In this document: positions 16,011 to 30,305 of the stretch, piece by piece
How the letters are laid out: each line of letters opens with the position of its first letter
How positions within the stretch are numbered: position 1 is the first letter of the stretch
Assembly (NCBI GenBank): GCA_963724765.1
Contig: CAVRVY010000001.1
Coordinates: 1,312,001 to 1,376,000, forward strand
From: an uncultured delta proteobacterium
GTDB taxonomy: Bacteria > Desulfobacterota > Binatia > Binatales > Binataceae
DNA length: 64,000 nt
Reading direction: 5' to 3'
The notes under the pieces: model-generated
What the model was told of the DNA's origin: nothing
The model's database searches: none
What the model saw: the letters and a program-made list of their open reading frames with translations, nothing else
Translations under genes and position numbers: made by a program

Positions 16011-18776
16011 ATGAGTAAAGACAGTTTCGGTGCGCGTACCGAGCTCAACGTCGGCGGCCGCAAGTACACGATCTTCAGCCTGCCGGCGCTGGAGCGGCGC
16101 GGCTTCGCGCTCGCGCGCTTGCCGTATTCGATAAAGGTAATGCTCGAGAACGTGCTGCGCCGCGAAGACGGCGTCGTCGTCACCGCCGACCAGGTCGAAG
16201 CCGTCGGACACTGGAGGCCGCAGCCGGGCGAGCGCGAGTTCTCCTTCATGCCGGCGCGCGTGCTGCTCCAGGACTTCACCGGCGTGCCGGTGGTGGCCGA
16301 TTTGGCCGCGATGCGCGACGCGATTAGGCGCCTGGGCGGCGATCCCTCGCGGATCAACCCGATCCAACCCGCCGATCTCGTGATCGACCATTCGGTGCAG
16401 GTCGACAGCTTCGGCACTGCCGGGTCGTTCGCGATCAACGCCCAGATGGAATTCGAGCGCAACCGCGAGCGCTACCTGTTTCTGCGCTGGGGCCAGGGCG
16501 CCTTCGACAACTTCCGCGTGGTCCCGCCCGACACTGGAATCGTGCATCAGGTCAACCTCGAGTATCTCGCCCCGGTCGTCTTCATTTCGAAGGACGGCCA
16601 CGCTTATCCCGACACGCTGCTCGGGACCGACTCGCATACCACGATGATCAACGGGCTGGGCGTAGTCGGATGGGGCGTGGGCGGAATCGAGGCCGAGGCG
16701 GCGATGCTGGGGCGCTCGATTCCGATGCTGATTCCCGAGGTGATCGGTTTCAGGTTCACCGGCGCGATGCGTGCGGGGGCGACCGCGACCGACCTGGTGC
16801 TGACGGTGACGCAGATGCTGCGCAAGCGCGGCGTGGTCAACAAGTTTGTGGAGTACTTCGGCAGCGGGCTGGGTAGCCTGAGCGTCGCCGACCGCGCCAC
16901 CCTGGGCAACATGTCGCCCGAGTACGGCGCGACGATCGGATTTTTCCCGGTCGACGATCAGACGCTGGAATACCTGCGCCTCACGGGCCGCGCCGAGCCT
17001 CAGGTGCAGCTGATCGAGTCCTATTGCAAGGCGCAGGGGCTTTTCCGCACTGCCGAGTCGCCCGATCCGATCTTCACCGACACGCTGGAGCTGGATCTCG
17101 GCACGGTCGAGCCGAGCATGGCCGGCCCGCGCCGTCCGCAGGATCGCGTGCGATTGCGCGCGTCCAAGAGCGAGTTCCGCCGCGAGCTGGCCAAGGAAGT
17201 CAGCAATCACGACGGTATCGATCCGGAACGGATCAGCAAATGGATAAACGAAGGCGGAGCCCCCGCTGTCGCGCCCCATCAGCCGATCTCTTCTGTCGAT
17301 CTCGGCCCGCTGGGGCATCGTGTTGAAGTGACGGGCGAGGGCGGTGAGCACTTCGAACTAGCGCAGGGCGCTGTGGTTATCGCCGCGATCACGAGCTGCA
17401 CTAACACCTCCAATCCGTCGGTGATGCTGGGGGCGGGGCTGCTGGCGAAGAAGGCGGTCGAGCGCGGGCTCAGCGTAAAGCCGTGGGTCAAGACCAGTCT
17501 TGCGCCGGGGTCGAAAGTGGTCACCGACTATCTCAACCGTGCGGGCCTCACCGAGTACCTGGAGCGGCTGCGCTTTAATCTGGTCGGCTACGGCTGCACG
17601 ACCTGTATCGGCAACAGCGGACCGATTCCCGAAGCGATCGCGGCCGCGGTCAAGCAGGGCGACCTGGTCGCTTGCGCGGTGTTGAGCGGCAACCGCAATT
17701 TCGAGGGCCGTATCAACCCGGTCGTCCGTTTCAACTATCTCGCCTCGCCACCGCTGGTGGTCGCGTATGCGATCGCGGGCACGATGGACTTCGATCCCGA
17801 GCGCGATTCGCTCGGCAGTGATCAGCAGGGCAACCCGGTCTACCTCCGCGACATCTGGCCGACCACGCGCGAGCTCACCGAAGCCGTCGCCGGCTCGATC
17901 GATTCCGCGATGTTCCGCAAGGAGTACGGTCAGGTGTTCGAGGGCGACGAGCACTGGCGCGGGCTGAAAGTGCCCGAGGGCAATTTGTTCCGCTGGGAGA
18001 AAGATTCGCTATACGTCAAGGCGCCGCCGTTCTTTGACGGCGTCGATGCGACGCCGCCGCCGATCGGCGACATCAAGGATGCGCGCGTGCTGGCGATGCT
18101 CGCCGATAGCGTGACCACCGATCACATCTCACCCGCCGGATCGATCGCGGACCACACCCCGGCCGGCAAGTATCTGATCGCTCATGGCGTACAGCCGCGC
18201 GACTTTAATTCCTACGGCGCGCGCCGCGGCAATCATGAAGTGATGGTGCGCGGGACCTTCGCCAATATCCGGCTGCGCAACGAGTTGGTGCCGGGCGTCG
18301 AGGGCGGCTTCACCATGCATCTGCCCGACGGCGAGCGCACCACGATTTTCGAGGCCTCCGAGCGCTACCGCACCGAGGGCGTGGCGCTGATCGTGATCGC
18401 CGGCAAGGAATACGGCTCGGGAAGCTCGCGCGATTGGGCCGCCAAGGGCACGCAGTTGCTCGGCGTGCGGGCGGTGATCGCGGAGAGCTTCGAGCGGATC
18501 CATCGCAGCAACCTGGTCGGGATGGGCGTGCTGCCGCTGGAGTTCACCGGTGGTGACACGCGCAAGAGCCTGGAGCTTACGGGGCGCGAGAGCTACTCGA
18601 TCGAAGGGCTGGCGGCGGGCGTTGAGCGGCGCCAGAAGCTCAAGGTGCGCGTCAGCGACGGCGGCCGCACGCGCGAGTTCGAGGTGCTGGCGCGGATCGA
18701 CACGCCCGAGGAAGTCGAGTACATGCGCCACGGCGGCATCCTGCCGTACGTGCTGCGCGAACTACTCCACGCGTGA
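16011..18776 (+). CDS. acnA: Aconitate hydratase AcnA
   Basis: RVLLQDFTGVP, DHSVQVD, GTDSHT, Fe-S Cys motifs ITSCTNTSN and GYGCTTCIGNSG, TTDHISPAG, GSGSSRDWAAKG. Confidence 0.97.
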   Translation: MSKDSFGARTELNVGGRKYTIFSLPALERRGFALARLPYSIKVMLENVLRREDGVVVTADQVEAVGHWRPQPGEREFSFMPARVLLQDFTGVPVVADLAAMRDAIRRLGGDPSRINPIQPADLVIDHSVQVDSFGTAGSFAINAQMEFERNRERYLFLRWGQGAFDNFRVVPPDTGIVHQVNLEYLAPVVFISKDGHAYPDTLLGTDSHTTMINGLGVVGWGVGGIEAEAAMLGRSIPMLIPEVIGFRFTGAMRAGATATDLVLTVTQMLRKRGVVNKFVEYFGSGLGSLSVADRATLGNMSPEYGATIGFFPVDDQTLEYLRLTGRAEPQVQLIESYCKAQGLFRTAESPDPIFTDTLELDLGTVEPSMAGPRRPQDRVRLRASKSEFRRELAKEVSNHDGIDPERISKWINEGGAPAVAPHQPISSVDLGPLGHRVEVTGEGGEHFELAQGAVVIAAITSCTNTSNPSVMLGAGLLAKKAVERGLSVKPWVKTSLAPGSKVVTDYLNRAGLTEYLERLRFNLVGYGCTTCIGNSGPIPEAIAAAVKQGDLVACAVLSGNRNFEGRINPVVRFNYLASPPLVVAYAIAGTMDFDPERDSLGSDQQGNPVYLRDIWPTTRELTEAVAGSIDSAMFRKEYGQVFEGDEHWRGLKVPEGNLFRWEKDSLYVKAPPFFDGVDATPPPIGDIKDARVLAMLADSVTTDHISPAGSIADHTPAGKYLIAHGVQPRDFNSYGARRGNHEVMVRGTFANIRLRNELVPGVEGGFTMHLPDGERTTIFEASERYRTEGVALIVIAGKEYGSGSSRDWAAKGTQLLGVRAVIAESFERIHRSNLVGMGVLPLEFTGGDTRKSLELTGRESYSIEGLAAGVERRQKLKVRVSDGGRTREFEVLARIDTPEEVEYMRHGGILPYVLRELLHA

Positions 18777-18816
18777 GCGTGCGCGACGTATCGCGTACGG
18801 CCCGTGTCGCCGGGTG

Positions 18817-19881
18817 TCAGCTTACCTGCCTAATCGCAGGAACGAGTTCTTCTGGTGCAGATAAGGCAACCGGGATAGGCGGCAACCATCTGAGAGCCAG
18901 TCGGCGCTCGCGGACATTGGCTCGTGGACCCAGCCAGAAACTATGCCAGTGTGCACGACGAATATGTGGGACTGGCGAGGAGCGATTTGCTCCCGTCTGT
19001 CCAAGCGCCTGTCGCATTGCACAACGCAGGGGGGCACCCATTCTGTAGCCCGTTTCCCAGATCGTCGGCCCGTCGGGTGGAAAAAGGCGAGGCCCTTTAC
19101 GCGTCTGAACTGGGATTGGTCTGCCGGGCGCATTCCTGATCGCTGCCGAATCGCGGTAATCGGCGCTCTGGCTACATAGGTAGAGCAGCATTGAAATCAG
19201 AGGAGAGAGGCTAGCGGCCGCGGCAGGGGGATCAGCCGCTACCAATTGCTCATCCGCTAGCTTTGTGGCTATACCGCTCGACCAGCATATCTTCTGCTCG
19301 TAGTTTGCACGATCGATCGACGCGATGCGGCAGGCCTCTTCAAGCGTCGATACGGAAAGCGGAACCGCGATCGAATGAAGTACGCCGGCCGGGTCGTCGA
19401 GCAGAAGATGCAGTTCGGAATCGGCGTCACCGGAGCCGGTATTCAAATGTGCAAAAAATCCTTCCAGACGTTTGCCGGTCGACAGACTCCTTCCTGGCGT
19501 CTCGATATATACACACCATTCCGGCAAGTGAAAAAGAAGTTCAACTGGAAGCTGACCTTCGATTGGCGTATTCCAAACCGCTTCGGCTACGTCCGGATCG
19601 ATCCTGTAGATCCCCTGAGTGACGCGCCAGGTGGCCAGCGGAACCACCATCCGGCTGAAGCATTCCACGGAGTCGAATGAGAGAGATTTTGTCGAGTCGT
19701 TCCCGAATGGGCAAACGTGCTCGATTAGAAAAGACCCGGCTGTGGTCGATAGATAACACCAATCCGGCCATCTCGGGAGTTTCCTCCCGCGTTCGGCACG
19801 CGCAAGGTCCACGTACTTCCACAGCGCTGGCCACTGACGGCCGCATTTGACTAGGATTTGCTTGGGCCTTGGCCAGCTTAT
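18817..19881 (-). CDS. AcrVA2/FinQ-like protein (anti-CRISPR AcrVA2 family homolog); start uncertain
   Basis: Motifs I recall for this family: WPDWCYL, WRVTQGIYRID, LPEWCVYIETPG, LLYLCS, PHIRRAHWHSFW, RWLPPIPV. The annotated GTG is at 19812, but the frame stays open to 19899 with an in-frame ATA at 19881. Confidence 0.68.
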   Translation of the reverse strand: MSWPRPKQILVKCGRQWPALWKYVDLARAERGRKLPRWPDWCYLSTTAGSFLIEHVCPFGNDSTKSLSFDSVECFSRMVVPLATWRVTQGIYRIDPDVAEAVWNTPIEGQLPVELLFHLPEWCVYIETPGRSLSTGKRLEGFFAHLNTGSGDADSELHLLLDDPAGVLHSIAVPLSVSTLEEACRIASIDRANYEQKICWSSGIATKLADEQLVAADPPAAAASLSPLISMLLYLCSQSADYRDSAAIRNAPGRPIPVQTRKGPRLFPPDGPTIWETGYRMGAPLRCAMRQALGQTGANRSSPVPHIRRAHWHSFWLGPRANVRERRLALRWLPPIPVALSAPEELVPAIRQVS

Positions 19882-19899
19882 CTTTGGACGATCCGATCC

Positions 19900-21408
19900 C
19901 TAAAGCTTCACGTACACAGACTTTATTTGCGTGAACAGATCGAGTACGTGCTGACTTCCCTCGCGACCGAAGCCCGACTGTTTGTAGCCGCCGAAAGGCA
20001 TCGCGGTATCGACGATGCCATAGCAGTTGACCCAAACCGTCCCTGCCTTGAGCGCTCTGGCGACCTTGTGCGCCCGGCTGATGTCGCGCGTCCAGACTGC
20101 CGCGGCGAGCCCGTAGGTCGTGTCATTGCTCTGGAACACGGCGTCATTTTCGTCCTTGAACGGGATCGTTGCGGCGACCGGGCCGAAGATTTCCTCGCGC
20201 GCGATCCGCATGTCGTTCTTCACATCGGCGAAGACAGTTGGCTTGACGTAGTATCCTTTTCCGTCTTTCGCCTCGCCGCCGATCGTGATCCTCGCACCTT
20301 CCCGTCTGCCTATTTCGAGGTAGCCTTTCACCCGATCGAACTGTTCCTGCGAAACTACCGGTCCCAACCTCGTTTTCGAATCGAGCGGATCTCCGAGCGT
20401 AAGGCTTTCGCTGGCTTTGGTAAGTTCCCCGACAAAATTGTCGTAAATGTCGCGCTGCACAAAGATTCGCGTGCCGGCCGCGCAGACCTGTCCGGAATTG
20501 TAGAACACTCCGTTCATGGCGTTGCGCACCGCCTGACCCATGTCCGCGTCAGGGAAGATGATATTTGGCGACTTGCCTCCGAGTTCGAGCGAGACGCGTT
20601 TCAAATTGCCTGTGGAAGCCCGGAGGATAAGTTTGCCTACCTCGGTCGACCCGGTGAAGCTTACCTTGTCGATGTCAGGATGCTCGGCGATGGAACTTCC
20701 CGCGCCGGGACCGAACCCGGTAACCACGTTGACTACTCCGTCGGGAATTCCCGCTTCTTGGATTAGTTCGCCCAGCCGGAGCGCGGTGAGTGAGGTTTGC
20801 TCGGCGGGTTTCAAAATCATCGTATTGCCGCACGCGAGTGCTGGCGCGATTTTCGTAACCGCCATCAGCAACGGAAAATTCCACGGGATGATCAGGCCAC
20901 ATACGCCGACCGGTTCGCGCAGTGTGTAGTTGAACAAAGACGAGTCTGACGGATTAGTTTCGCCGTAGATCTTGGTCGGCCATCCGGCGAAATAACGAAA
21001 AGTGCCGGCGGCGCCGACGATGTCGATGGCGCGCGCCTGCGAAACTGGTTTGCCATTGTCCAGGCTTTCGAGCTCGGCCAGTTCGTCCGCATACTTGTCG
21101 ATCAGTTCGGCCATCTTGAGCAGATAGCGCGCTCGCTGATGCGGGCTGATACTCCGCCACTTGCCTTCTTCGAATGCTTTGCGAGCCGCCTTTACCGCTT
21201 CGTCAACGTCCGCCTGGTCTCCCTCGGCCACGAGCGCCAGCACTTCTTCGTTGGCGGGATTGATGGTTTCGAACGTCTTGCCCGATTTGGCGGGCACCCA
21301 TTTGCCGCCGATCAACAGCTTGGTCGGCGAGCGTTTCAGGAAATCCAAGACCCCGCTTACCTTGACGCCCTGCGTGGCCCTTTCGACTGACGGAACTGTT
21401 GCTGCCAT
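19900..21408 (-). CDS. NAD-dependent aldehyde dehydrogenase (copy 1)
   Basis: PWNFP, KPAEQT, FTGSTEVG, LELGGKSP, catalytic Cys in GQVCAAG, EEIFGPV, FGGYKQSG. ATG at 21408 (MAATVP). Confidence 0.95.
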   Translation of the reverse strand: MAATVPSVERATQGVKVSGVLDFLKRSPTKLLIGGKWVPAKSGKTFETINPANEEVLALVAEGDQADVDEAVKAARKAFEEGKWRSISPHQRARYLLKMAELIDKYADELAELESLDNGKPVSQARAIDIVGAAGTFRYFAGWPTKIYGETNPSDSSLFNYTLREPVGVCGLIIPWNFPLLMAVTKIAPALACGNTMILKPAEQTSLTALRLGELIQEAGIPDGVVNVVTGFGPGAGSSIAEHPDIDKVSFTGSTEVGKLILRASTGNLKRVSLELGGKSPNIIFPDADMGQAVRNAMNGVFYNSGQVCAAGTRIFVQRDIYDNFVGELTKASESLTLGDPLDSKTRLGPVVSQEQFDRVKGYLEIGRREGARITIGGEAKDGKGYYVKPTVFADVKNDMRIAREEIFGPVAATIPFKDENDAVFQSNDTTYGLAAAVWTRDISRAHKVARALKAGTVWVNCYGIVDTAMPFGGYKQSGFGREGSQHVLDLFTQIKSVYVKL

Positions 21409-21504
21409 TTTTCGGAATCTCCTGGAAATCGAGTTCGAATGAGTATCGTTGCGAGCGGAGGCGGCCGTGTCCTCAATCGGAACAGCCGCCTCCGCCCGCA
21501 CAAG

Positions 21505-23008
21505 CAAGAGCTTCACGTAAACCGATTTTATCTGCGTATAGAGATCGATCGCATATTTTCCTAACTCACGCCCGATGCCGGACTGCTTGTAGCCGCCAAA
21601 GGGCGAGATTGGATCGATGTTGTTGTAGTAATTGACCCAGACTGTGCCCGCCTTCAAGGCACGCGCAACCTTGTGTGCGCGACCCACGTCGTTGGTCCAT
21701 ACTGCGGCCGCAAGCCCGTACGTAGTGTCATTGCCCTGCAGGATGGGCGTCGTTCTCATCTTTGAAGGGGATGACGGAGGCTACGGGGCCGAAGATCTCC
21801 TCGCGCGCGATTCTCATGTCGTTGTTGACCCCGGTAAAAATGGTCGGGTCGACGAAGAACCCTTTGCCCTTGCCGACCTCGCCGCCGATCGAAGGCTTCG
21901 CGCCTTCCTTCCTGCCAAGCTCGAGATACCCCTTGACCCGATCGAACTGCTCCTTGGAGACGAGTGGCCCAACCGTGGTTTTCGGGTCGAGTGGATCGCC
22001 AGCTTTGACATTGGAAGTGTAGCGGGTCAGTGCATCGACAAAGCGATCCTGGAAATCGCGCTGAACGAAAACGCGCGTTCCCGCACAGCATACCTGCCCG
22101 GACAACATGCAAAATCCGAACATCGAGGTAGCCACGGCAGATTCGAGGTCGGCGTCGGCGAAAACCACGTTGGGCGACTTGCCGCCGAGTTCCAATGAGA
22201 CGCGCTTCAGGTTTCCCGCCGAGGCCTGCAAGATCAACTTGCCGACTTCAGTTGAGCCGGTGAATGCTACCTTGTCGATGTCAGGATGGTTGGCGATCGC
22301 GGCGCCGGCCGTCTCGCCGAATCCGGTGATAATATTGACTACGCCATCTGGAATGCCAGCCTCAAGCACCAGCTCTCCGAGCCGAAGCGCGGTGAGCGGC
22401 GTCTGCTCGGCGGGTTTCAGGATCGAGACGTTGCCGCAAGCGAGCGCCGGTGCGATCTTCCAGGCGAACATGGCGATGGGACCGTTCCATGGAATGATCT
22501 GGCCGCAGACGCCCACCGCTTCGCGCAGCGTGTAGTTGAACATCGAGGGGTCGGAAGGGTTGGTCTCACCATAGATCTTGGTCGCCCATCCGGCGTAGTA
22601 GCGAAACACGTCGACTGCGCCGGCAACCATGCCGCGAGCCAACGAGATTGCCATTCCATTGTTGAGCGTCTCCAGGGTCGCCAATTCGTCGGCGTTCTGC
22701 TGAATCAGGTCTGCGATCTTGAGCAGATAGCGGGCCCGTTGATGCGGACCAATTGTGGGCCATTTGCTTTCCTCGAAAGCCTTGCGCGCGGCTTTTACCG
22801 CTTCGTCCACGTCAGCCTTGTCGCCCTCGGCCGCGAGCGCCAGGACTTCCTCGTTAGCCGGATTGATTGTTTCGAAGGTTTTTCCCGACTTGGCCGATAC
22901 CCACTTGCCGCCGATGAGTAATTGTTTTGGCTTCCTGAGAAACCCGAGCACCGCAGTCGAGCTAACACCATGAGCCGCCTTTTCGATTGATGGAACTGCC
23001 GCTGCCAT
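21505..23008 (-). CDS. Aldehyde dehydrogenase (copy 2), with an apparent +1 frameshift at ~21746 and no stop codon (sequence error or pseudogene)
   Basis: ORF 21728..23008 ends DENDA-HPAGQ, while ILQGNDTTYG...YVKL continues in another frame. After YVKL the codon is TTG where the paralogs have TAA/TAG. Confidence 0.85.
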
Positions 23009-23073
23009 TTTGTTTCCTCCAATTCGAGCGATCGCCCCGTCCGGGTCGGCATAGGCCGACGAACCTGCAACGC

Positions 23074-24579
23074 TTAGAGCTTCACGTAAACCGTCTTGAT
23101 CTGCGTATACAGATCGATTGAATGCCTACCCAGTTCGCGGCCGAAACCTGACTGCCTGTAGCCCCCGAACGGTGAGATCGGATCGATGATTCCGTAACAA
23201 TTCACCCATACCGATCCTGCCTTGAGTGCGCGCGCGACCTTGTGCGCACGGCCTATATTCTGCGTCCATACTCCAGCGCCCAGCCCGTAGGTGGTGTCGT
23301 TGCCCTGCAGCACGGCGTCGTTTTCGTCCTTGAACGGAATCAGCACCGCGACCGGTCCGAAGATCTCCTCGCGAGCTATCCTCATTTCGTTTTTGACGTC
23401 AGTGTAAATCGTTGGCTTTACGAAATAGCCTTTCGCCTGGGGGCCGCGTTCGCCGCCGGCTTTCGCCCGCGCGCCTTCGTCTTGCGCAAGCTTGAGATAA
23501 TCCAGCACGCGCTCATGTTGCTCGCTCGAAACCAGCGGCCCCATCGTGGTCGCCGGGTTGAGCGGCTGACCCAGATTGATCTCGTTTGCTTTGACGGAGA
23601 TCCGCTCGGCGAACTCGTCGTAGATTCGCTCCTGCACGAACATCCGCGTTGCCGCACAACAGATCTGCCCCTGATTGCGAAAGACACCAACCGCCGAAAG
23701 CGCCACCGCCTGCTCCATCGGCGCATCCGGGAAGATAACGTTGGGCGACTTGCCTCCTAGTTCCAGCGAGACGCGCTTTAGATTGCCGGCGGAGGCTTGA
23801 AGGATGAGCTTCCCTACTTCGGTCGAACCGGTGAAAGCGACCTTGTCGATATCCGGATGCGCCGCTATCGCGCCTCCGGCAGTGGGGCCGAAACCGGTCA
23901 CTATATTGACCACTCCATCCGGGACGCCCGCGTCGCAGATAAATTCCCCCAGTCGAACGGCGGGAAGCGGAGTCTGCTCGGCAGCTTTCAGAACCAAGGT
24001 GTTGCCAAAAGCCAAGGCAGGCGCGATTTTCCAACTGATAGTGGCGAGCGGGCCGTTCCAGGGAATAATTTGTCCGCAGACACCGATCGGCTCACGCAGA
24101 GTGTAGTTGAAAGTGCCGGGATCCGAGGGATTGGTCTCGCCGTAGAATTTTGTCGCCCATCCGGCGTAATAGCGGAATGTATCGGCGGTGCGGCCAACTT
24201 CTATGATCGACTCGGAGATTGGCTTGCCGTTGTCGAGCGTTATCAACTCGGCTAGCTCTTCCGCGTGGCCTTCAATCAGATCCGCGATCGTGAACAGGTA
24301 GCGCGCGCGCTGATGCGGCCCCATCGAGCGCCATTTGCCGGTTTCGAAGGCCTTGCGCGCGGCCCTTACGGCTTCATCCACATCGGCCTTGTCGCCTTCC
24401 GCGGCCAGAGCAAGGACTTCTTCGTTTGCCGGATTGATGGTTTCAAAAGTCTTGCCCGACTTGGCTGCAATCCACTTACCGCCGATCAGGAGCTTCTTGG
24501 GCGAATCCTGCAAAAATTCCCGTACTGCGGAATTCGCCCCTGCCGCGGCGCGCTCGATAGATGGAACTGCTGCTGCCAC
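23074..24579 (-). CDS. NAD-dependent aldehyde dehydrogenase (copy 3)
   Basis: Same ALDH motifs (LELGGKSP, GQICCAA, EEIFGPV). GTG start after a GAGGGG RBS. Confidence 0.95.
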   Translation of the reverse strand: MAAAVPSIERAAAGANSAVREFLQDSPKKLLIGGKWIAAKSGKTFETINPANEEVLALAAEGDKADVDEAVRAARKAFETGKWRSMGPHQRARYLFTIADLIEGHAEELAELITLDNGKPISESIIEVGRTADTFRYYAGWATKFYGETNPSDPGTFNYTLREPIGVCGQIIPWNGPLATISWKIAPALAFGNTLVLKAAEQTPLPAVRLGEFICDAGVPDGVVNIVTGFGPTAGGAIAAHPDIDKVAFTGSTEVGKLILQASAGNLKRVSLELGGKSPNVIFPDAPMEQAVALSAVGVFRNQGQICCAATRMFVQERIYDEFAERISVKANEINLGQPLNPATTMGPLVSSEQHERVLDYLKLAQDEGARAKAGGERGPQAKGYFVKPTIYTDVKNEMRIAREEIFGPVAVLIPFKDENDAVLQGNDTTYGLGAGVWTQNIGRAHKVARALKAGSVWVNCYGIIDPISPFGGYRQSGFGRELGRHSIDLYTQIKTVYVKL

Positions 24580-24765
24580 TGGTCCAACTTCCCCTCTTCA
24601 GGATTTTGCGACTAAGATTCTATTGCGGCCTGTCGCCATCGTAAGAGCGAAACGCTCGTATCATGGCACAGGCGGAGGAGGCTCGTAAAGCGAACAAATC
24701 TTTTCAGGCAAGCGAGGATGCGTTCCGAAGATTGAGGAGACGTTAAGACTGAATTCTGGCGAGCT

Positions 24766-27021
24766 TTATTCGTAGCGCAGAGCGTCGATCGGATTGAGCA
24801 GCGAAGCCTGGCGTGCCGGATAGTAACCGAAGAAGACGCCGACCGCGGCCGAGAACAGGAATCCACCGATGATCGCAGTGGGCGAGAGCAGCGTCGGCCA
24901 TCCGGCGATGGACGAGATCGCCTGCGACGCGCCGATGCCGGCCAGTATTCCGCCGGCGCCCCCGACCATTCCGAGCAGGATTGCCTCGACCAAAAACTGC
25001 AGCAGGATATGCACGCGCCGCGCGCCAATCGCCATCCGGATGCCGATCTCGCGGGTGCGCTCGGTGACCGAGACCAGCAGGATGTTCATGATGCCGATGC
25101 CGCCGACCAGCAGCGAGATCGATGCCACGGTGGCGAGCAGTAGCGCCATGATGCGGCTGCTGCCCTCGGCCGCCTGCGCCACCTCGCTCAGGTTGCGCAC
25201 GTCGAAGTCGTTATCCTGGCCGGGCTGGATGTGATGGCGATTGTGCAACGTGTCGATTATCTGATCCATCGCCTGCGGGATGAGCGCCTGGCTCTTCGCC
25301 TGGACGAAGATATTGTGCACCACGCCCGTCAGTTTGGGCGGGCTGCCGAACGGACTGGTCTGGGTCGAGTCCGAGCTGAAGATCGTCCCTACGGTCGGTA
25401 CCGCCGCGTAAGGATTCGAGGGGCTCGGCGTCGGCGCGGTCGCGGGGCTGGTCGAGGGCGGCGCGGCGACACCCAGGACCTTGCGCTCGGCGGTGCTGAA
25501 CGGAATCAGCACCACGTCGTCCTGGTCCTGGCCCCATCCTGACTGGCCCTTGGCTTCGAGCACGCCGACCACCTGCATGTCCACGCTTTTGACCCTGATA
25601 TTGGCGCCGATCGGGTCGGCATGCTCGCCGAACAGGTTGGCGACCACGGTCTGCCCGAGCAGACACACGCGGGCGGCGGAACGCTCGTCCTCCTCGGAGA
25701 GCGGGCGTCCTTCGGCCACCATCCAGTTGCGGATCGGCAGATAGCTCGGCGTCACGCCCTGGATATTGGTGCTCCAGTTCTGCCGGTTGTATTCGACCTG
25801 GGCGAGTTGGCGATCGAGATAGCTTACTCGGGCGACTGGCCAATCGTCCTTGAGGATCTCGTCGGCGTCGCCCACGGTCAGTGTCGAGACGCTGCCGAAC
25901 CCGGCGCGCACGCCGTTGGCCGTGGTTGCGCCGGGCATCACGACCAGCAGATTGGTGCCGAGGCTTGCGATCTGCTCTTCGACGGCCTCGTTGGCGCCTT
26001 GCCCGACCGCGACCATCGCGATCAGCGCGGCGACGCCGATGAAAATTCCGAGCATCGTCAGGATCGAGCGCAGCTTGTTGCGGGCGAGCGCGCGGGCCGC
26101 CGCGCGCAGCGCCATCATGGCGAAAGTCAGGGGCGCGGCGTCGGATTCCGAGAACTCGTGCAACTTCTGCAAATGCTGCAAACCCTGCGAATCCTGCGAG
26201 TCCTGCGAGTCCTGACGGACCTGCGGGCCCTCAGCCGCCGCGAACTCGGAGGCTTCCGCGGGCTGCGCGGCCTGGCCGGCGAGTGCCACGGATGCGGACG
26301 CCGGCGAATCGACCGCACCCGCGATCGCCTGTCGTGCCGTCTGCCGTTTGTCCGAAATGATCAGGCCGTCGCGCAGCATGACGACCCGAGCGGCGAAGGC
26401 GGCAAGCTCGGCGTCGTGGGTCACGAGCACGATCGTCAAGCCCTGGCGGTTGAGCTTCTGCAGCGTGGCCATGATTTCGAGCGAGGTCTTCGAGTCGAGG
26501 TTCCCGGTCGGCTCGTCGGCCATCAGGATCGCCGGGTTGTTGATTAGTGCGCGCGCGATCGCGACCCGCTGCTGCTGGCCGCCGGAGAGCTGATTGGGAT
26601 GGCTGCGCTCGCGGCCCGCTAGTCCCATCAGCGCCAGAACCTCGTAGGCGCGTACCGCGCCCTTGGCCAAGTCGCCCGAGTAAAAGAGCGGCAGCTCCAC
26701 GTTCTCGAGCGCGCTGGTGCGCGAGAGCAGATTGAAGCTTTGGAAAACGAAGCCGATCCGCCGGCTGCGGATTCGCGCCAGATCGGGTTCGCTGAGCGAG
26801 GCGACGTCGACGCCTTCGAGCAGGTAGCGGCCGGCGGTCGGCCGGTCCAGGCATCCGACGATGTTCATCAGAGTGGACTTGCCCGAGCCCGAGGCGCCCA
26901 TGATCGCGACGAATTCGCCGCGCTCGATGGTCAGGCTGATGCCGCGCAGCGCCCGCACCTCGAGGTCGCCAAGCTGATAGGTCTTGTGGAGATCGGAAAC
27001 GCTGATGACGGCGTCTGCCAT
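24766..27021 (-). CDS. macB: MacB-type ABC transporter (ATPase fused to FtsX-like permease)
   Basis: GASGSGKST, LSGGQQQRVAIAR, ADEPTGNLD, RSILTMLGIFIGV, GGIGIMNILLVSVTERTREIGIR, LNPIDALRYE. Confidence 0.9.
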   Translation of the reverse strand: MADAVISVSDLHKTYQLGDLEVRALRGISLTIERGEFVAIMGASGSGKSTLMNIVGCLDRPTAGRYLLEGVDVASLSEPDLARIRSRRIGFVFQSFNLLSRTSALENVELPLFYSGDLAKGAVRAYEVLALMGLAGRERSHPNQLSGGQQQRVAIARALINNPAILMADEPTGNLDSKTSLEIMATLQKLNRQGLTIVLVTHDAELAAFAARVVMLRDGLIISDKRQTARQAIAGAVDSPASASVALAGQAAQPAEASEFAAAEGPQVRQDSQDSQDSQGLQHLQKLHEFSESDAAPLTFAMMALRAAARALARNKLRSILTMLGIFIGVAALIAMVAVGQGANEAVEEQIASLGTNLLVVMPGATTANGVRAGFGSVSTLTVGDADEILKDDWPVARVSYLDRQLAQVEYNRQNWSTNIQGVTPSYLPIRNWMVAEGRPLSEEDERSAARVCLLGQTVVANLFGEHADPIGANIRVKSVDMQVVGVLEAKGQSGWGQDQDDVVLIPFSTAERKVLGVAAPPSTSPATAPTPSPSNPYAAVPTVGTIFSSDSTQTSPFGSPPKLTGVVHNIFVQAKSQALIPQAMDQIIDTLHNRHHIQPGQDNDFDVRNLSEVAQAAEGSSRIMALLLATVASISLLVGGIGIMNILLVSVTERTREIGIRMAIGARRVHILLQFLVEAILLGMVGGAGGILAGIGASQAISSIAGWPTLLSPTAIIGGFLFSAAVGVFFGYYPARQASLLNPIDALRYE

Positions 27022-27102
27022 GAGTGTCGCGCGCTCGGCCAATAGTTGGTTCAATCGCTCGGTCGGAACATCCGCGCCGGATTCGGCGAGTCAGAACGCA
27101 AA

Positions 27103-28492: not shown

Positions 28493-28987
28493 CTATTCCC
28501 CAGGCGTAGGAGGCGTGCCGGAAGTATCGCCAGACTGGGATCCGAAAGCCGCCTGAAATATCGCGTGCCGCTGCTGCTGCAATTGCTCCAGTTGGCTCAG
28601 CAACGCGGTGGACTTGCTGGTATTGGGAGCGCCCTTAAACAGCCCTTCCCATACCTTGTACTTCTCCATCGTGAGGGCCTGCTGCGCGCTGGCAAAGCTT
28701 GAAATCTGACTGTCGCAGGTGCCGCCGGAAGCCAGGCAGGCGATCAGGGCCTGATGGGTGCTTTTGACGTTGGCGAAGTCGGTCTTCAGGGCCGCATCGC
28801 CTTTGAACGCCGTATGCATCTGAGAATGGTCAACGCCGGCCACTTTCGCGAGCATAAAGAGATGACCGTCGCCACCCGGCCCGCCGCCGTGCCCGCCCCA
28901 TCCCTGCGCCAATGCCAGTCCGCATGTAGCCGCCAGGACCACGCCGATTGTTGCCGCCACCCGTGAAGCTTTCCGCTTTCCAATCAT
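28493..28987 (-). CDS. Secreted helical protein, possibly Spy/CpxP-like
   Basis: GAGG RBS, signal peptide ending ALA-Q, Gly/His-rich N-terminus (GWGGHGGGPGG), helical Gln-rich body. Confidence 0.6.
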   Translation of the reverse strand: MIGKRKASRVAATIGVVLAATCGLALAQGWGGHGGGPGGDGHLFMLAKVAGVDHSQMHTAFKGDAALKTDFANVKSTHQALIACLASGGTCDSQISSFASAQQALTMEKYKVWEGLFKGAPNTSKSTALLSQLEQLQQQRHAIFQAAFGSQSGDTSGTPPTPGE

Positions 28988-29112: not shown

Positions 29113-29787
29113 TCAGAGCTTCCTGACCGCCGGTCTGCGCTCTCCCGACCATCGATACTCGTAAAACCCACCCTGACGGACCCGAGTGACGAGCCGCGGC
29201 CTGAAGCAGGCGAGACAGGTTCCGCCCCGGTCGCGAACGCAGGGGTAAATAATTCCGTTGGAGCTATGGTCAAGCAGCCTGCGGCCTAGCCGTTGTGAGG
29301 CCGCATAACTGTCGGGATTCAAGTACTTCGAGAAGCGCCGGGCGCGAAGGTCATGAAAGGCTGCATTGAAGTCCGCAAGATAGGCCGCCATCTGGACGAA
29401 CGTATCGAACCATCCGCCGATCTCCTCCAGCTCTCGCGTGCGGTGGTAAATAGCCTCCTCGTGTGCGGTCTTGAGCGCGAATCCCGCATACCAGGCGCCG
29501 CGATTGGGATCATTGAAACGGCCGCCATCGGGGCGGGGATGGCAAAACGCCGCCATGACCACCGTGGCCATCGGCCGTCCGGTGAGCCATTCGTCCCTTG
29601 GGATGGTATACAGAACACCCAACTCGGCGCTGATCCGGTCGTTGGTCCATCCCTCGAGCTCGAAAATCGCTTCGAGGTCCTCCGATGAAGCGACGGCGTC
29701 GAAGATTCCGATCGAAGGATAGCGGCTGGGGATCAGTCGGTAGGTTGCGCGTCTGGCGAGATGGACCAGCGGTGGCTTCAGTTCCAC
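29113..29787 (-). CDS. RES-domain toxin (NAD+ phosphorylase family)
   Basis: YRLIPSRYP, GGRFN...GAWYAG...TAHEE, YAASQRLG, GIIYPCVR. GTG start at 29787 overlaps the antitoxin stop. Confidence 0.85.
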   Translation of the reverse strand: MELKPPLVHLARRATYRLIPSRYPSIGIFDAVASSEDLEAIFELEGWTNDRISAELGVLYTIPRDEWLTGRPMATVVMAAFCHPRPDGGRFNDPNRGAWYAGFALKTAHEEAIYHRTRELEEIGGWFDTFVQMAAYLADFNAAFHDLRARRFSKYLNPDSYAASQRLGRRLLDHSSNGIIYPCVRDRGGTCLACFRPRLVTRVRQGGFYEYRWSGERRPAVRKL

Positions 29788-30248
29788 GCGCCGCGCCGGG
29801 CGTCGAGCAAACGCCTGACCCGATGAAGGCCGTCGATCCCGCCGTCGATCATCAACTCCAGCGGCGGCTTGCCCCCCAGCAGCGGATTCGCGTTGCGAAG
29901 CCTGACCCATTGGTCCGCGAGCTCGGCCTGGGGGTAGAGGATGTGAAGAGCCTTGTAGATTCCGAGGACCAGCGAAATCCTGCTCAGCATGTCGAAGGAG
30001 AGTGTGCCGGTCTGGCCGGCCTTGTACTTGTGATAGGTGGAGGGGGCCGGCCAGCCCAGAAGCCCACGCTGCTGGTTGACGCTGAGATCCCATGCCGCGC
30101 AGATGTTGAGGAAGGTCCGCATCGCGGGCGCGGAGAGCCGCCGGCGCACCTCGGGGTCATGACGGCCGGGTGTGGCGTCATGCAAACGCTCCAAACCATC
30201 GCTCAGTCTCTCGGGCAGAACCATCCGCCGGTCTCTCCTTATGGACAC
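29778..30248 (-). CDS. Xre/MbcA/ParS-type antitoxin
   Basis: HTH region (WDLSVNQQRGLLG...STYHKYK) and C-terminal WVRLRNANPLLGGKPPLELM...GLHRVRRLLDA. It lies directly upstream of the RES gene. Confidence 0.88.
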   Translation of the reverse strand: MSIRRDRRMVLPERLSDGLERLHDATPGRHDPEVRRRLSAPAMRTFLNICAAWDLSVNQQRGLLGWPAPSTYHKYKAGQTGTLSFDMLSRISLVLGIYKALHILYPQAELADQWVRLRNANPLLGGKPPLELMIDGGIDGLHRVRRLLDARRGAWN

Positions 30249-30305
30249 TCTACTCCATATATGGAGAATGCGGCAATCGGGTCAAAGTTGGAAGATGTTC
30301 CGCGT

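Follow-up and report, generated by a model that had tools for sequence, protein, structure and literature searches.

What is a gene of the AcrVA2/FinQ family doing at the end of a row of aldehyde dehydrogenase (ALDH) genes in a bacterial chromosome? The stretch of DNA that raises this question, referred to here as the window, comprises 64,000 nucleotides of the genome of an uncultured delta proteobacterium of the family Binataceae (genome G000; assembly GCA_963724765.1, contig CAVRVY010000001.1, positions 1,312,001–1,376,000). On the minus strand of the window, an AcrVA2/FinQ-family coding frame occupies positions 18817..19881, with 354 codons followed by a stop codon at 18817–18819, counted from the position at which related genes have their ATG. 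AcrVA2, the one studied member of the family, binds the nascent polypeptide of its target, which leads to the loss of that protein's mRNA. To our knowledge, it is the only bacterial protein that destroys an mRNA after recognizing the protein being made from it. The answer towards which we lean is that the window holds a stranded passenger, a copy of a real AcrVA2/FinQ gene that has lost its start codon within a chromosomal ALDH cassette, and not a working regulator of its neighbours.

Without interruption, the frame covers 360 codons between position 19899 and the stop codon, and its translation holds all four motifs that a preliminary description of this DNA had listed (WPDWC, WRVTQGIY, LPEWCVYIETP and PHIRRAHWH). 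The open reading frame (ORF) encodes a genuine member of the AcrVA2/FinQ family. In a phmmer search against all PDB sequences, AcrVA2 (7ci1_A) was the sole match at E values of up to 10 (E = 1.4e-17), with the similarity divided between two collinear stretches, residues 53–121 and 190–314 of the query. Residues 6–320 match phrog_6160 (E = 9e-44), a PHROG without an assigned function. A tblastn search against plasmids found annotated finQ genes (E = 5e-14), aligned at 27% identity over query residues 77–352, or 77% of the query; it matched 597 plasmid records, 557 of them conjugative. Matches also occur in 59 phage records, including those of Moraxella phages and one gene annotated as AcrVA2.

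The structure of the protein was modelled with AlphaFold2 from an alignment of 90 sequences, with a mean predicted local distance difference test score (pLDDT) of 81.6 and a predicted template-modelling (TM) score of 0.83. The model has the three-domain fold of AcrVA2. When compared with the PDB by Foldseek, it matched 7ci2_A (E = 1.7e-15), 7ci1_A (E = 2.5e-15) and 7ci1_B (E = 9e-15) with TM scores of 0.59–0.71 over 356–358 columns, at a sequence identity of approximately 16–18% in the structural alignment. AcrVA2 chains alone match significantly, the next best hit having an E value of 0.31. An absence of profile or structural similarity, the result that the preliminary description had named as refuting its assignment, did not occur.

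The residues on which AcrVA2 depends are also present. In the phmmer alignment, PHIRRAHWH of the window protein lies opposite phirrghwh of AcrVA2, and tWRvTqGIYriD opposite aWRnTlGIYqlD. The AcrVA2 mutations W79A and D89A are reported to weaken activity, and H286A, R288A and H291A to abolish it (10.1101/2022.11.29.518452). All five of these mutation-sensitive residues (W79, D89, H286, R288 and H291) are kept in the window protein, where H306, R308, H311 and W85, numbered from the ATA codon discussed below, are invariant in 90/90 aligned homologues. In a search of 5.8 billion proteins, PF26125.1 is precomputed on all 120 homologue clusters among the matches listed, including P0005, the protein called for the window itself, which matches the query at 100% identity across the 84% of the query that aligns. 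Scans of the ORF with Pfam, NCBIfam and PADLOC gave no match; because PF26125 was absent from the Pfam models scanned, that blank is no evidence against membership. FinQ is itself reported to be an AcrVA2 homologue that lowers the mRNA of F transfer genes (10.1101/2022.11.29.518452). The abundance of AcrVA2 homologues in bacteria without Cas12a is already published, the same preprint counting approximately 1,800 orthologues, mostly on mobile elements and in bacteria that lack Cas12a (10.1101/2022.11.29.518452).

The window copy differs from its relatives at its very first codon. The relatives, which are 73–86% identical and 354–359 amino acids long, open with M-[SKN]-W-P-R-P-K, where the window reads I-S-W-P-R-P-K. 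A comparison of the upstream regions places an ATA codon (19879..19881, minus strand), 18 nucleotides past the stop codon of the preceding gene (ALDH3), at the relatives' ATG start, and the ATG is kept at this position in 7/7 clade relatives (G002, G009, L024, L025, L026, L029 and L030). Bacteria do not ordinarily start translation at ATA. The first canonical in-frame start in the ORF list is a GTG (19810..19812, minus strand), upstream of which the frame holds no other ATG, GTG or TTG; begun there, the ORF would be 331 residues long. The frame given in the preliminary description stands, but its start has to be moved, as the relatives begin 23 codons upstream of the listed GTG, exactly where the window has ATA. 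A start at the GTG would cost 23 residues, among them helix 5–16 and the beginning of helix 20–29, both of which are modelled at a pLDDT of approximately 90, and the residues lost would include R5, P18 and W21, each at least 90% conserved. Because ATA replaces the conserved ATG, translation of the window copy is probably weak or absent.

The gene reached its present place as the last of four in an inserted cassette (18811..24765; 5,955 bp) that consists of ALDH1, ALDH2, ALDH3 and the AcrVA2-like gene and lies between acnA and a macB-like ABC transporter gene. In the preliminary description the gene was placed between acnA and an ALDH triplet, and the matches to Pfam Aconitase and Aldedh on its two sides agree with that position. 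The gene acnA (16011-18776, plus strand; Pfam Aconitase, E = 1.8e-160) forms the left flank of the insertion and is convergent with the AcrVA2-like gene. The macB-like gene (24766..27054, minus strand) forms the right flank, upstream of the cassette and co-directional with it, and is followed on the same strand by an HlyD-like gene.

The DNA downstream of acnA was compared in 15 of the 16 other genomes of the genus, a presence/absence check that the preliminary description had proposed. The cassette is missing from this site in all 15. Five of these loci (in G013, G005, G015, G011 and G007) have an empty site, with the macB-like gene following acnA after approximately 60–110 bp; in the remaining ten (L010–L013, L016–L020 and L023) the DNA after acnA is unlike the window or matches its gene order in part, and the site may be an insertion hotspot. 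With its arrival inside an ALDH cassette at a site empty in five same-genus genomes, and with its ATG lost, the gene deserves the word 'stranded' that had been applied to it.

The cassette itself recurs elsewhere. Positions 24578–18817 align as a single colinear high-scoring segment pair of 5,801 bp, at 85.7% identity, to the metagenome contigs L024 and L025. On one strand of L025, three ALDH genes and the AcrVA2-like gene are followed by a NarM-like gene (PF09655/TIGR02664) and an aldo-keto reductase (AKR) gene. The flanks of L025 are 89–93% identical to contig C4 of G000 at approximately 1.51–1.54 Mb, which places L025 in the same genus. Between the window and L025, the synonymous divergence (dS) is 0.57 for the AcrVA2-like gene, 0.57 for ALDH3 and 0.68 for ALDH1, and these near-equal values indicate that the cassette diverged as one unit.

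No vehicle for this movement is visible. Repeats flanking the cassette were not found among 20 direct and 21 inverted repeat families, the long direct families all being the three ALDH paralogues, and the window contains no tRNA gene that could have been an integration target. Among the 42 ORFs scanned in the 64-kb window there is no integrase, transposase, phage gene, conjugation gene or small helix–turn–helix (HTH) gene, in keeping with the earlier remark that no aca HTH gene, integrase or phage gene lies nearby. Non-coding DNA within the cassette amounts to only approximately 6 bp and 186 bp, so there is no space in it for an aca gene.

Base composition sets the cassette apart from its immediate surroundings. 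The G+C content at third codon positions (GC3) is 0.57–0.58 in the AcrVA2-like ORF, 0.69–0.72 in the ALDH genes and 0.85–0.86 in acnA and the macB-like gene. The excess of A/T-ending codons over acnA (at 0.85) that had been reported is therefore real; its meaning, however, needs correction, as the low G+C content extends over the entire cassette of approximately 6 kb and is low solely against the local housekeeping genes; the genome has a mean G+C content of 0.62 and a median GC3 of 0.70 in its long ORFs.

The ALDH genes carry the second sign of damage. All three lie on the minus strand and match Pfam Aldedh with E values from 1e-152 to 1e-216, whereas their NCBIfam matches all fall below the curated cut-offs. 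ALDH1 (23074..24579; 501 residues, GTG start) and ALDH3 (19900..21408; 502 residues) enclose a broken ALDH2 (21506..23008, as aligned to ALDH b of L025). Compared with its L025 orthologue, ALDH2 has one extra base near 21746, producing a +1 frameshift, and has lost its stop codon, with the result that a 426-residue ORF stops early and the frame runs on into ALDH3 as a 619-residue ORF made up of the ALDH2 tail and ALDH3. An ALDH search matched residues 1–426 of ALDH2 only. The preliminary description was right about three tandem genes and missed the frameshift in the middle one. The ALDH2 sequence recurs in short-read contigs of X1 and X7, none of which extends 31 letters to each side of the frameshift. 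Taken together, the ATA start and the frameshifted ALDH2 suggest that the cassette has begun to decay.

The clade to which the window gene belongs is constrained. Pairwise comparisons of the window, G002, G009 and L025 with a Nei–Gojobori script gave ratios of non-synonymous to synonymous divergence (dN/dS) of 0.07–0.16 at dS values of 0.57–1.18, and the ratio is even along the protein (0.08–0.13 per 60-codon segment). The clade protein is under purifying selection. It is extremely improbable that the clade in its entirety lacks function or that the ORF is open by chance: lesions do occur in the window (ATA), in L029 and L030, and in P0016 and P0028, but the idea is already contradicted by the low dN/dS over such divergence, by at least 12 clusters encoding intact proteins of 354–359 residues, by the invariance of the functional motif and by the confidence with which the fold is modelled.

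Several observations weigh against the reading of a stranded passenger, and the lesions just mentioned are among them. L029 and L030 each carry a 1-nucleotide deletion, one of them beside a run of six T; P0016 has a frameshifted N terminus; and P0028 (266 residues) joins an N-terminal fragment of a NarM-like protein (PF09655) to the middle and C-terminal part of a clade AcrVA2-like protein with a garbled C terminus, probably after a deletion that joined adjacent genes arranged as in L025. Some of these lesions may be assembly errors. The ATA itself is found without differences in matching short-read contigs of X1, X4 and X7, three runs from three studies; yet no short-read contig extends at least 31 letters to each side of it, X1 could come from the sample that yielded the window, and a contig of X3 (record 13) has one unlisted difference near its end, by the ATA. 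Constraint on the window lineage, moreover, is not relaxed: codon changes unique to it are synonymous in 23 cases and non-synonymous in 4, which implies that the loss of the start was very recent or that the gene is still translated. Residual translation could arise, for example, by re-initiation 18 nucleotides after the ALDH3 stop codon or from the GTG at 19812.

This opens the way to a different reading, in which the window copy would still be an active weapon of the FinQ or anti-defence kind, translated from ATA through coupling to ALDH3 or from the GTG, and silencing a gene of a resident conjugative element, of a phage or of a defence system, from which the host or incoming DNA would gain. 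We regard this as unlikely. The unrelaxed constraint and a frame intact for 360 codons speak for it, as does the presence of the homologue FinQ on conjugative plasmids, which make up 557 of the 597 plasmid records matched. It is opposed by the position of ATA outside the usual start codons and by the price of the GTG start, which deletes most of a confidently modelled helix (pLDDT of approximately 90) and three positions at least 90% conserved. A scan of the cassette for promoter-like sites found 0 where 1.8 are expected by chance, a further point against an active gene; with 7 terminator-like sites against 6.9 expected, the promoter and terminator scan is uninformative. The clade contexts, too, show neither a mobile element nor a defence gene linked to the AcrVA2-like gene.

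Candidate targets for such a weapon exist in G000. The genome has type IV coupling protein genes (PF02534) at C1:938748-940031, C2:547239-549493 and C1:73404-75036, the last of them interrupted by a TGA codon and all three far from the window; they probably mark integrated conjugative elements. A weak VirB4-like match was also seen at C2:543551. These resident elements are possible candidates for FinQ-type targets, and nothing ties them to the AcrVA2-like gene. The search for cas12a and conjugation genes that had been proposed thus gave a divided result: Cas12a (TIGR04330, cas_Cpf1) was matched in 0/1 own genome and 0/61 genomes of the family, in a scan whose controls were also unmatched and which had no positive control, whereas the coupling protein genes were found.

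The reading of a stranded copy draws further on where the rest of its clade is found. Identity within the clade is 72–87%, and a gap separates it from the other homologues among the matches listed. In the search of 5.8 billion proteins, 29 of the 120 clusters among the matches listed are at least 70% identical to the window protein and the other 91 are at most 48% identical; in a metagenome scan, 7 of 80 loci kept are 76–87% identical (over the best tblastn segment) and the rest at most 42%. With one genome taken per species, only L104 and L105 are 83–84% identical, and all other full-length matches reach at most 42%. The contexts of clade members are chromosomal and metabolic. In G002 the order is an XDH-like (xanthine dehydrogenase-like) gene, an ALDH gene, the AcrVA2-like gene, another ALDH gene and modABC; in G009, L026 and L028 the gene lies between a MobA-like gene and Exo_endo_phos and MutS genes; in L029 it follows an ALDH gene; and in L030 it follows two ALDH genes, an XDH-like gene and an Oxidored_molyb gene. 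In none of the clade contexts examined does the AcrVA2-like gene have a mobile-element gene beside it, the single tyrosine recombinase in L007 being 8 kb away in DNA syntenic with G000. In that locus of G009 (L007, 9685-12163), a 2.48-kb insertion between the MobA-like gene and mutS consists of the AcrVA2-like gene together with a convergent Exo_endo_phos gene, at a site where G000 has 64 bp; the pairing of the two genes recurs in L028.

Distant homologues (31–42% identity) keep different company. Phage, plasmid, transposon or defence genes are their neighbours at 12/15 and 10/13 loci (22/28). Among these neighbours are integrase, IS605, IS21 or other transposases, TraG_N, Aca2, RadC, DUF932, ParB, portal, CI repressor, lysis, YopX, McrBC, GmrSD, restriction-modification, TIR and Abi genes. 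Three distant loci, L113, L116 and L145, contain no mobile-element or defence genes, which shows that lone chromosomal copies are not unique to the window's clade.

Other features of the wider family were seen in passing. In L120 (3546-5105), from an Isosphaeraceae metagenome-assembled genome, a 40% identical homologue lies approximately 5 kb from an ALDH gene and approximately 1.2 kb from a transposase gene; its proximity to the ALDH gene is probably a coincidence. L156, L167, L169, L173, L176, L181 and L182 hold C-terminal fragments only, of 55–130 residues at 44–58% identity, which suggests that decayed remnants of the AcrVA2 family are common in chromosomes. The 37–42% identical homologues P0035 (404 residues) and P0069, P0070, P0076 and P0078 (429–447 residues) have N-terminal extensions, that of P0035 being zinc-ribbon-like with two CxxC pairs; such extensions may be extra target-recognition or nucleic-acid-binding modules.

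What is new in the window's clade is a conserved aldehyde and molybdoenzyme neighbourhood combined with a natural presence/absence series within one genus. It is this neighbourhood that invites the idea of a domesticated regulator of aldehyde metabolism, which would bind the nascent N terminus of an ALDH paralogue, in the cassette or the core genome, or of a molybdoenzyme, and tune its mRNA. The gene lies 18–30 nucleotides downstream of a co-directional ALDH gene in the window, L024/L025 and L029. Each clade context contains ALDH, XDH/aldehyde oxidase, Oxidored_molyb, MobA-like, modABC, NarM-like or AKR genes, although the contexts belong to closely related organisms and may all descend from one ancestral neighbourhood. 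Selection is uniformly purifying, without an arms-race signal in the N-terminal half, and the dS of the gene is the same as that of the neighbouring ALDH genes.

Further evidence for such a role, and against a mere passenger, comes from the distribution of the gene. Carriers in the genus number 3 of 17 genomes (G000, G002 and G009), each with the gene at a different locus. The ALDH triplet is present in 3/3 carriers and in 0/14 non-carriers within the genus; ALDH matches number 5 in G000 and 4 in each of G002 and G009, against 1 or 0 in every non-carrier. A tree built from 1.47 kb of a single gene, acnA, and with some low support values does not unite the carriers in one clade; in it, G002 pairs with the non-carrier G001. 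A functional link accounts better than pure hitch-hiking for such co-occurrence among non-monophyletic carriers. The NarM-like gene (PF09655), a neighbour in L025, was considered as a co-varying partner and rejected, as it belongs to the core of the genus (15/17 genomes).

Within the same genus, however, the triplet and the gene come apart: in G002 and G009 an AKR gene directly follows the triplet, and the AcrVA2-like gene is on another contig. Other genera of the family (G042, G048 and G090) also have tandem triplets, with an ALDH1 orthologue that is 84% identical, and the AcrVA2-like gene was found in 0/5 triplet-bearing genomes of other genera with a query that did match within the genus. 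The survey of triplets outside the genus also took in G089, G073, G049 and G075, genomes flagged as unpublished, on which nothing concluded here depends. A need of the ALDH triplet for the AcrVA2-like gene is ruled out by these genomes. The GC3 of the AcrVA2-like gene (0.56–0.65) is below that of its ALDH neighbours (0.69–0.82) in all four genomes for which the comparison was made, a pattern that a later insertion would be expected to leave. A domesticated regulator is on this evidence quite unlikely, and the linkage is best explained if gene and triplet share one accessory region of the genus. Of the term 'domesticated' in the preliminary description, the part that stands is purifying selection on the clade; integration into the ALDH system does not, given that other genera have the triplet without the gene.

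A bolder form of the same idea would make the captured lineage a nascent-peptide-specific switch within an aldehyde-oxidation cluster, silencing, for example, the resident core ALDH or a cassette paralogue upon expression of the cassette. We consider it very doubtful. If true, it would be the first use of a phage and plasmid silencing mechanism in ordinary metabolic regulation. A literature search found no paper naming both AcrVA2 and aldehyde dehydrogenase, the supplements of 10.1101/2022.11.29.518452 lying outside its scope.

The history that we favour, that of a passenger stranded in an ALDH cassette, would run as follows. A small clade of the AcrVA2/FinQ family may have left mobile elements, and its present home appears to be the accessory part of the chromosome in a single genus of uncultured bacteria from soil and peat. 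In G000, the gene would have come as the last of the four genes of the cassette, with the three ALDH paralogues before it, and the cassette would have recombined into the spacer between acnA and the macB-like gene with no visible mobility gene or repeat. Purifying selection maintains the clade protein, which, by analogy with AcrVA2, is most likely still a sequence-specific silencer of some target other than Cas12a. Against this part of the account, the silencing mechanism is drawn from a single studied homologue of approximately 16–18% identity in the structural alignment. In the window copy, the ATA start and the broken ALDH2 would then mark a cassette in early decay.

Beyond the cassette, the window contains a RES-domain gene (29116-30093, minus strand; Pfam E = 3e-27, GC3 of 0.63) that adjoins a 164-residue ORF (28496-28987, minus strand) for which no Pfam match was found; the two may be a RES-type toxin–antitoxin pair. 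The stretch at approximately 29181–30301 is unmatched in G013 (L009) and is found in G011 (L021), and it thus varies within the genus.

The interest of the locus lies in how far it narrows the search for a target. Most homologues reside on mobile elements, a setting that leaves any cellular component open as the target; the window's clade is chromosomal, steadily under purifying selection and confined to one genus and one kind of neighbourhood. The recurring ALDH, aldo-keto reductase and molybdoenzyme genes provide a short list of candidate targets, together with strains that naturally have or lack the gene, and a target found here would show a role of the family outside anti-CRISPR activity and fertility inhibition. 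If the gene is a mere passenger, the locus is a clean case of a four-gene metabolic cassette that moves between the chromosomes of one genus without a mobility gene, and of its early decay.

In comparison with known systems, the window gene stands apart from a typical anti-CRISPR gene in that it is not on a mobile element, its cassette sitting in a chromosomal spacer. With FinQ, found on IncI-type and F-like conjugative plasmids, it shares the tblastn match to finQ genes and, according to the preprint cited above (10.1101/2022.11.29.518452), the family; FinQ is plasmid-borne, whereas the window gene has no conjugation gene within 64 kb, and the N-terminal quarter of the window protein does not align. 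The closest counterpart is AcrVA2, the anti-CRISPR protein of a Moraxella bovoculi prophage (7CI1 and 7CI2). Unlike AcrVA2, the window gene is located in a chromosomal metabolic cassette and not on a prophage, it has no acrVA1 or aca neighbour, and its copy in the window has lost its start codon. The two proteins are nonetheless alike in fold over their full length, in collinear sequence similarity, in size (354 residues in the window against approximately 320) and in the W, D and H-x-R...H residues on which activity depends.

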